A stretch of 48,989 bases of DNA from a virus (taxonomy: Duplodnaviria; Heunggongvirae; Uroviricota; Caudoviricetes): IMG/VR virus record IMGVR_UViG_2541047945_000011; one strand, 5' to 3'. Shown here piece by piece: positions 46,932 to 47,956 of this stretch. How positions within the stretch are numbered: position 1 is the first letter of the stretch; every line of letters starts with the position of its first letter. The translations under genes and the position numbers were made by a program. The notes under the pieces were generated by a model, which was not told the origin of the DNA, searched no databases, and saw nothing but the letters and a program-made list of their open reading frames with translations.

Positions 46932-47956
46932 TGGGAAGACGAAGGAAAAATCCTGAACACGAAAAATTACCTCCAAATGTATACCCAAATAAATATAGTT
47001 ATGTATGGAAACCAACATCCAGAGAATCTGTCACACTAACCGCCATCAAGGATGGTTTAGCTGCTTTATGGAAAAAGTATGAGGAAACTGTAAATAATCG
47101 CGATCGTGCAATGACATTCGGTCGCTTGTGGGAAAAATTCCTCGCCAGCGCCTGTTACAGTGACCTTAGTCCAAGAACACAAAAAGATTATCTGCAACAT
47201 CAAAAAAAGTTGCTTGCCGTATTCGGTAAGGTACCAGCGGATTCCATAAAACCAGAACACATCCGTCGATACATGGACAAAAGAGGGGAGCAGAGTAAAA
47301 CGCAAGCCAACCATGAAAAAAGCAGTATGTCCCGTGTTTACAGTTGGGGGTATGAGCGAGGGTACGTCAAGGCTAACCCATGTGCAGGTGTAAGTAAATT
47401 CAAGGCCAAAAACCGCGAACGATATGTAACCGACAAAGAATACCAGGCAGTATTAAGCGTTGCACCTCTTCCTGTTTTTATCGCAATGGAAATTGCCTAT
47501 CTGTGTGCAGCGAGGGTTTCCGATGTGTTATCGCTGAAATGGGAACAGATTGGAAACGACGGGATATTCATCCAGCAAGGGAAAACCGGAAAAAAACAGA
47601 TAAAAGCATGGAGTCCACGATTACAGGCAGCGATCGAAAAAGCAAAACAGTTACCAAAATCTGCCTATGTGATCAGCAATCAATACGGCAACCGATATAT
47701 GTACAAAGGCTTTAACGAAATGTGGGTAGAAGCAAGAAATCGTGCTGGAAAAATTTCAGGTATTTTAACCGACTTCACCTTTCATGATCTGAAGGCGAAA
47801 GGAATTTCAGACTATGAAGGAAGCAGCCGGGATAAGCAACTTTTCTCTGGTCACAAAACCGAAGGGCAAGTGCTAATCTATGACAGGAAGGTTAAAGTTT
47901 CACCAACACTTGATGTCCCGTTACCTGAAAATATTCCAAGAAAATATTCCAAGTAA
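46931..47956 (+). CDS. int: Tyrosine integrase (phage integrase family)
   Basis: 341 aa; catalytic-region motifs AARVSDV (Arg), FHDLKAKG, SGHKTEGQ and LIYDRK (Tyr); adjacent to the tRNA 3' end. Confidence 0.9.
   Translation: MGRRRKNPEHEKLPPNVYPNKYSYVWKPTSRESVTLTAIKDGLAALWKKYEETVNNRDRAMTFGRLWEKFLASACYSDLSPRTQKDYLQHQKKLLAVFGKVPADSIKPEHIRRYMDKRGEQSKTQANHEKSSMSRVYSWGYERGYVKANPCAGVSKFKAKNRERYVTDKEYQAVLSVAPLPVFIAMEIAYLCAARVSDVLSLKWEQIGNDGIFIQQGKTGKKQIKAWSPRLQAAIEKAKQLPKSAYVISNQYGNRYMYKGFNEMWVEARNRAGKISGILTDFTFHDLKAKGISDYEGSSRDKQLFSGHKTEGQVLIYDRKVKVSPTLDVPLPENIPRKYSK

Follow-up and report, generated by a model that had tools for sequence, protein, structure and literature searches.

In this study, we analysed a 48,989-nucleotide stretch of Caudoviricetes DNA (IMG/VR record IMGVR_UViG_2541047945_000011; hereafter the window). 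The integrase gene is located at 46931-47956 on the plus strand and encodes 341 amino acids. The open reading frame, its Pfam domains, a full-length phmmer match to lambda Int and an AlphaFold2 (AF2) model all support this assignment. Within a lambdoid prophage, the integrase gene comes last, and mtfA and a tRNA-Ser(CGA) gene lie downstream. Immediately upstream (46728-46931, plus strand), there is a 67-residue DUF4224 protein, which matched PF13986 (Pfam, E = 1.9e-15) and PHROG 1266, annotated as "excisionase" (E = 3e-21). In addition, the gene at the equivalent position is annotated as excisionase in both ST64B and ZF40. The DUF4224 protein is therefore a probable excisionase, that is, a directionality factor. 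Its stop codon overlaps the start codon of the integrase (TGATG, 46929-46933), suggesting that the two are translationally coupled.

Further upstream, an 824-residue "exonuclease" reading frame was found at 44195-46669. Its Pfam match is confined to about 175 C-terminal residues (643-814) and corresponds to an Rv2179c-like 3'-5' exoribonuclease domain; the N-terminal 640 residues are acidic and of low complexity, with no Pfam match. The exonuclease of ST64B is short (189 residues) compared with this reading frame.

The Pfam search identified PF00589 in residues 183-317 of the integrase (44.7 bits against a cut-off of 27.1), and PF22022 and PF14659, which represent central and SAM-like integrase domains, upstream of it. 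NCBIfam returned only Xer matches below threshold for this protein. When all PDB sequences were searched with phmmer, the matches were lambda Int alone (1z1b, 5j0n, 1z1g, 1z19, 1p7d, and 1ae9); in 1z1b, 5j0n, and 1z1g, residues 1-313 of the integrase aligned to residues 1-338 of lambda Int with E of about 1e-12. The AF2 model has a mean pLDDT of 84, and the segment around the catalytic tyrosine is of low confidence, as expected for a mobile loop. Furthermore, the top PDB fold matches of the model in Foldseek were full-length lambda Int (1z1b, 1z1g, and 5j0n), and 1z1b_A was aligned over 341 columns with a TM score of 0.62 (E = 2.6e-15). Sequence and predicted fold thus agree that the protein is a lambda-type tyrosine recombinase with the three domains of the arm-binding integrases, namely arm-binding, core-binding, and catalytic domains.

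Attachment site

The integration target is serU, the tRNA-Ser(CGA) gene at 48009-48098 on the minus strand, which marks the attR side. It was found by ARAGORN and agrees with the serU annotation of Sakai and K-12. To define the junctions, we compared the empty K-12 site with the integrase-side junction of the window and with the far (attL) junctions in strain 3385 and in Sakai. The sequences used were window 48009-48069, 1969-2058 of locus L012, 4385-4445 of locus L004 (strain 3385), and 3144-3204 of locus L005 (Sakai). Comparison of the empty K-12 site with attR and two attL sites showed that the 3' part of the tRNA, 48 nt at 48009-48056 (minus strand), is supplied by the phage. It differs from native serU at 48040 (A to G) and 48051 (T to C, both given for the plus strand), and these two changes form a compensatory pair in the variable arm. 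Next to it lies GGTTTTCGAGACC, a 13-bp strand-exchange identity segment in the anticodon stem-loop (48057-48069). This is the last segment common to attB, attL, and attR, and it lies between the phage-specific and the host-specific differences. Thus, the crossover is confined to 48057-48069.

The displaced native 3' part of serU stays at attL in strain 3385 and Sakai, so that the phage restores the 3' end of the tRNA and a partial tRNA copy is left at the far junction, as in other tRNA-targeting elements. We did not find an attL repeat of at least 12 nt in the 49-kb window. Thus, the far end of the prophage lies outside the window, and it was found in strain 3385 and Sakai instead. The junctions are identical in the three lysogens, which differ in cargo and structural modules; such uniformity would be expected if this lineage of integrases integrates precisely and site-specifically.

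Three direct ATTCCAAG repeats straddle the stop codon of the integrase gene (47933-47963, plus strand). The motif occurs nowhere else in the 49-kb window, and all three copies fall inside 31 bp. The same motif is also present on the attL arm, at 4486 (minus strand) and 4551 (plus strand) of locus L004 in strain 3385 and at 3311 of locus L005 in Sakai. Judging from this arrangement, the repeats are probably arm-type Int-binding sites of attP, recognised by the N-terminal domain. A 13-bp tandem repeat, GAAAATATTCCAA, is also present in two copies around the stop codon (47927-47963). A 360-residue variant of the integrase (P0288) reads through the repeat region at the stop codon.

Two further tRNA genes carried by the prophage, tRNA-Arg(TCT) and tRNA-Met(CAT), are located on the minus strand at 31265-31339 and 31440-31515, in the region of late-gene regulation. 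At the corresponding position, Sakai Sp14 has a tRNA with the anticodon CAT that is annotated as ileZ; by analogy, that of the window may be a lysidine-modified isoleucine tRNA.

Catalytic residues

In a preliminary description of this DNA, it was claimed that the integrase carries lysine at the position of lambda R311 (the box II arginine, or Arg II), with the remaining catalytic motifs in place. Both statements were borne out by our alignments. In the phmmer alignment, TFHDLKAKG of the integrase sits on TFHELRSLS of lambda Int with no gaps, which equates K288 with lambda R311, and the MAFFT alignments put the two residues in the same column. Lys288 is encoded by AAG at 47792-47794 (plus strand); the AAG codon is also present in the integrase genes of Sakai Sp14, ST64B, and ZF40. 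The other catalytic residues align as well: Arg195 (Arg I, lambda R212) in AARVSDV at 47513-47515, H285 (lambda H308) in FHDLK at 47783-47785, H308 (lambda H333) in SGHKT at 47852-47854, and Tyr317, the nucleophile (lambda Y342), in LIYDRK at 47879-47881, all on the plus strand. In addition, K218 in GKTGKK aligns with lambda K235, and D198 aligns with lambda D215. The region 47640-47900, to which these motifs had been assigned, belongs to the 3' third of the 341-codon reading frame. It does include H285, K288, H308, and Tyr317, but the arginine of AARVSDV lies upstream of it.

The integrase therefore has K288 where the family has the arginine of H-x-x-R. The preliminary description called this arginine nearly invariant, and Gibb et al. 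(2010, PMC2943603) reported 99.1% Arg and 0.5% Lys at Arg II across more than 12,000 tyrosine recombinases. As read from the alignments, the canonical tetrad is broken conservatively at Arg II, while the homology of the protein to tyrosine recombinases is beyond doubt.

Conservation and origin of Lys288

A word-indexed search yielded 1063 homologues of the integrase, 120 of which were listed, with identities from 99% to 55%. Lysine occupies the 288 column in all of these 120 close homologues and in the query (121/121). They come from Escherichia, Salmonella, Klebsiella, Citrobacter, Dickeya, Pectobacterium, Sodalis, Hamiltonella, Gilliamella, and other genera. H285, D286, K218, and Y317 are invariant among the same 120 proteins.

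To cover the wider family, representatives of 50%-identity clusters were searched exhaustively with HMMER, and 7197 relatives were obtained, including 272 at E ≤ 1e-30. A multiple alignment with the family, which had been proposed as a check, kept K288 in the column of the box II arginine. Among the best 150 of the 7197 relatives, this column contains 95 K, 39 R, 1 N, and 1 G, and the others are gapped fragments; K is thus found in 95 of 136 scorable representatives. The two main groups have distinct motifs, namely FHD[LI]KAKG[IV]SD...SGHKT...YDRK in the K group and FHD[LI]RAKAxTD in the R group. R195, K218, and Y317 are invariant in both groups, and H285, D286, and H308 are conserved at 86-100%. 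The relative with G at position 288, P0195, is degenerate and has also lost H308.

We then built a neighbor-joining tree of 114 full-length representatives with lambda Int as outgroup; it is a rough tree without support values, although its pattern is clear. All 79 full-length K-bearing proteins fell into one clade, and Fitch parsimony required a single change from R to K. On this tree, Arg II was replaced once, in the common ancestor of the large K clade, and the lysine has persisted since. Lysine at 288 is a real departure from the published family background, yet not a private mutation of this copy. The earlier suggestion of a subfamily that tolerates Lys fits these results well, since K is present in all close homologues aligned and its bearers among the family representatives are monophyletic.

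The strongest covariation with K288 was observed at residue 192, three positions before Arg I (codon TGT, 47504-47506, plus strand). Of the 79 K-clade representatives, 69 have Cys at residue 192, and 34 of the 36 Arg-type sequences (lambda Int, with T209, and 35 relatives) have Thr. C192 is invariant, together with Y317, in the alignment of closer homologues (A1). Further residues enriched in the K clade are G291, G297, and K302, and three arginines are also more frequent there than in the Arg-type proteins, namely R112 (76% vs 19%), R143 (78% vs 24%), and R230 (82% vs 22%). The change from Thr to Cys at 192 is a possible compensatory second-shell change. However, because the clade has a single origin, the covariation of 192 and 288 is confounded by phylogeny, and it is a lead rather than proof of compensation.

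Constraint on the integrase gene

Compared with the integrase gene of Sakai Sp14 (97% protein identity), there were 50 synonymous and 10 nonsynonymous differences, which correspond to a dN/dS of 0.045. By this measure, the gene is under strong purifying selection. The DNA-identical integrase gene of strain 3385 was flagged as "frameshifted" by PGAP (NZ_CP029420.1, 1137337-1138387; 43338-44388 of locus L004), and the annotated pseudogene extends to a TGA that corresponds to 47979-47981 of the window. We considered this flag as a sign of decay and rejected it: the C-terminus ...NIPxxYSK is kept in homologues down to 68% identity. Thus, the flag is an annotation artefact that reflects a longer reference variant.

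Activity of related integrases

Several published observations bear on the activity of integrases with HDLK. Circular excised forms of Sakai Sp4 and Sp14 were detected by attP PCR after mitomycin C treatment, and the authors concluded that the integrases alone appear sufficient for this excision (Asadulghani et al. 2009, PMC2669165). The same study reported that Sp14 circles were "significantly lower" than those of other Sakai prophages and that mitomycin C was needed. Excision of ST64B was measured by attP qPCR, and IntA, a second chromosomal integrase, acts on the ST64B att sites (PMC12455584). Since other integrases are present in Sakai and Salmonella, excision in these hosts cannot be credited solely to the K-type enzyme. 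The integrase of Pectobacterium phage ZF40 also has HDLK, and this temperate phage was sequenced from an induced lysogen. Our literature search for a biochemical assay of a K-type integrase returned none.

The same substitution has been made in the laboratory. Activity of Cre R292K was shown in vivo as well as in vitro, together with a ligation defect and an accumulation of covalent intermediate (PMC2943603). Vaccinia TopIB R223K keeps about 10% of its activity (cited in PMC2943603). In the transition-state structure, Arg II makes hydrogen bonds to O1P and to the tyrosine oxygen (PMC2943603). Given the ligation defect of Cre R292K, the kinetics of the K clade may be reduced or altered as well.

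Interpretation of Lys288

In our opinion, the protein is very probably a functional integrase of the Sp14/CP-933U type, a lambda-type enzyme acting at E. coli serU, in which Arg II changed to Lys once, across a whole clade, and was retained. Lys288 is not a lesion, because it is invariant in close homologues, clade-wide, and of single origin. By comparison with the Cre and TopIB structures and mutants, Lys288 would contribute a positive charge and would hydrogen-bond the non-bridging O1P oxygen of the scissile phosphate. The second contact of the arginine, to the tyrosine oxygen, would be lost or replaced, and second-shell changes such as Thr192 to Cys near Arg I may tune the active site. The integrase, with the DUF4224 protein as presumed directionality factor, would then recombine attP with the anticodon stem-loop of serU, and the phage-borne 61-bp copy of the 3' part of the tRNA would restore the gene.

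The preliminary description had raised the possibility of reduced or altered activity. As a defect of this copy, it is not supported, in view of the purifying selection, the precise att junctions, and the HDLK prophages that are reported to excise. In its strongest form, Lys would cripple the enzyme, and a decaying or weak gene would leave the prophage effectively locked in serU, which we regard as very improbable. The 99.1% conservation of Arg II (PMC2943603), the scarcity of Sp14 circles and their need for mitomycin C (PMC2669165), and the PGAP flag in strain 3385 all point that way. However, K does not vary within a deep clade that traces back to one change, dN/dS is 0.045 with the remaining catalytic residues all kept, and the conserved ...NIPxxYSK end turns the frameshift flag into an artefact. 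Degenerate relatives also look different, as P0195 illustrates with G288 and the loss of H308. Moreover, activity of homologues with Lys had been named at the outset as the observation that would speak against a loss of function, and two prophages with HDLK integrases, Sp14 (97% identical) and ST64B (59% identical), are indeed reported to excise.

It is also conceivable, although quite improbable, that another arginine assumes the role of Arg II and that Lys288 is a bystander. IntDOT of CTnDOT, with its relocated catalytic Arg I (PMC8138268), is a precedent, and R112, R143, and R230 are candidates by their enrichment in the K clade. Yet these arginines are conserved at 76-82% only, whereas Lys288 is 100% invariant; R112 and R143 are in the core-binding domain; and a lysine is sufficient for catalysis in Cre R292K and TopIB R223K (PMC2943603). 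An extremely improbable reading is that the protein is a regulator with a tyrosine-recombinase fold, of the SPbeta MrpR/YopR or phi3T SroF type, and not a recombinase. YopR, MrpR, and SroF do occur among the weaker Foldseek matches (ranks 30-42), but full-length lambda Int leads both the sequence and the fold matches, and the tyrosine, Arg I, the lysine, and the two histidines do not vary. The gene is terminal, with an excisionase-like partner, an adjoining tRNA att site, and precise junctions, which again argues for a recombinase.

A more ambitious version of the functional reading can be proposed, which we consider unlikely as it stands: Sp14, ST64B, and ZF40 would represent a natural ancient "R-H-K-Y" lineage of lambda-type integrases, in which Lys is fully competent through coevolved changes in the second shell, notably Thr to Cys three residues before Arg I, and the balance of cleavage and ligation is shifted in a way that the biology makes use of. 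If so, the shifted balance might appear as longer-lived covalent or Holliday intermediates, or as a stronger dependence on the DUF4224 protein or host factors. The lineage would then be a natural model for rewiring the active sites of tyrosine recombinases and TopIB.

Comparison with known systems

The integrase of Sakai Sp14 (ECs_2773; CP-933U of EDL933) is 97% identical to the integrase studied here and also has HDLK; it differs by 10 substitutions and a one-residue deletion. The order of exonuclease, DUF4224 gene, integrase gene, serU, and mtfA is the same in Sp14, and so are the att junctions. The remainder of the Sp14 and strain 3385 prophages is mosaic and only partly common with the window.

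The ST64B integrase, Sb28, is 59% identical. It shares the FHDLKAKGISDYEG, SGHKT, and YDRK motifs and the Cys three residues before Arg I, and an excisionase gene and a 3'-5' exonuclease gene precede it as in the window. However, Sb28 has 329 residues and is without the "...LPENIPRKYSK" tail.

Among solved structures, lambda Int (1z1b, 1z1g, 5j0n, and 1p7d) is the best match. It has the same three domains, including the MGRRR...LPPN arm-binding N-terminus, and the catalytic R, D, K, H, H, and Y at equivalent positions. Nevertheless, the identity is about 21%, and lambda Int has Arg311 and Thr209 in place of Lys288 and Cys192. Lambda integrates at attB between gal and bio, with no tRNA gene.

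Cre R292K and TopIB R223K carry the equivalent Arg II to Lys replacement and retain activity (PMC2943603). However, they were made in the laboratory as single substitutions and show a ligation defect and an accumulating covalent intermediate, whereas Lys288 is natural and ancient and is accompanied by other clade-specific changes. An entire clade of working enzymes with lysine in the Arg II position would be a natural complement to the studies of these mutants.

The protein itself is already catalogued as the Sp14/CP-933U and ST64B-type prophage integrase, and the tolerance of Lys is already in the literature. Literature searches for a Lys-type clade under a name of its own (RHKY, HxxK, or box II lysine) led to nothing beyond Gibb et al. 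(2010), and the main text of Smyshlyaev et al. (2021) does not mention one. The K-type clade with its single origin and the Cys192 covariation seems to be without an explicit earlier description; this is the sole new element, and it is descriptive. The gain is modest, because the substitution is conservative and its tolerance has been documented. In practice, an incomplete RHRY tetrad is a poor ground for calling such prophages "integrase-defective".

Carriers of the integrase

The exact integrase protein is present on 392 contigs. The junction of the integrase gene, serU, and mtfA was found, with at least 80% of the query matched, in 1092 of 5426 complete E. coli genomes, so that about one fifth of these genomes have this integrase at serU. 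The carriers include the O157 prophage Sp14, with the effector genes espJ and tccP.

"Escherichia phage vB_EcoM-606R7" (ON470580.1; locus L002), whose integrase is 99.7% identical, was considered as a free phage with this enzyme and rejected. The record contains host flank and runs via serU, mtfA, and asnT into the yersiniabactin (HPI, ybt) genes. Thus, it represents a chromosomal prophage region and not a packaged phage genome. Likewise, phiCTX Int, on which the mini-CTX vectors are based, came into question as a K-type enzyme in experimental use because the integrase of a Citexvirus, D14A, has HDLK; it was rejected, since the Int of phiCTX itself is different and Arg-type.
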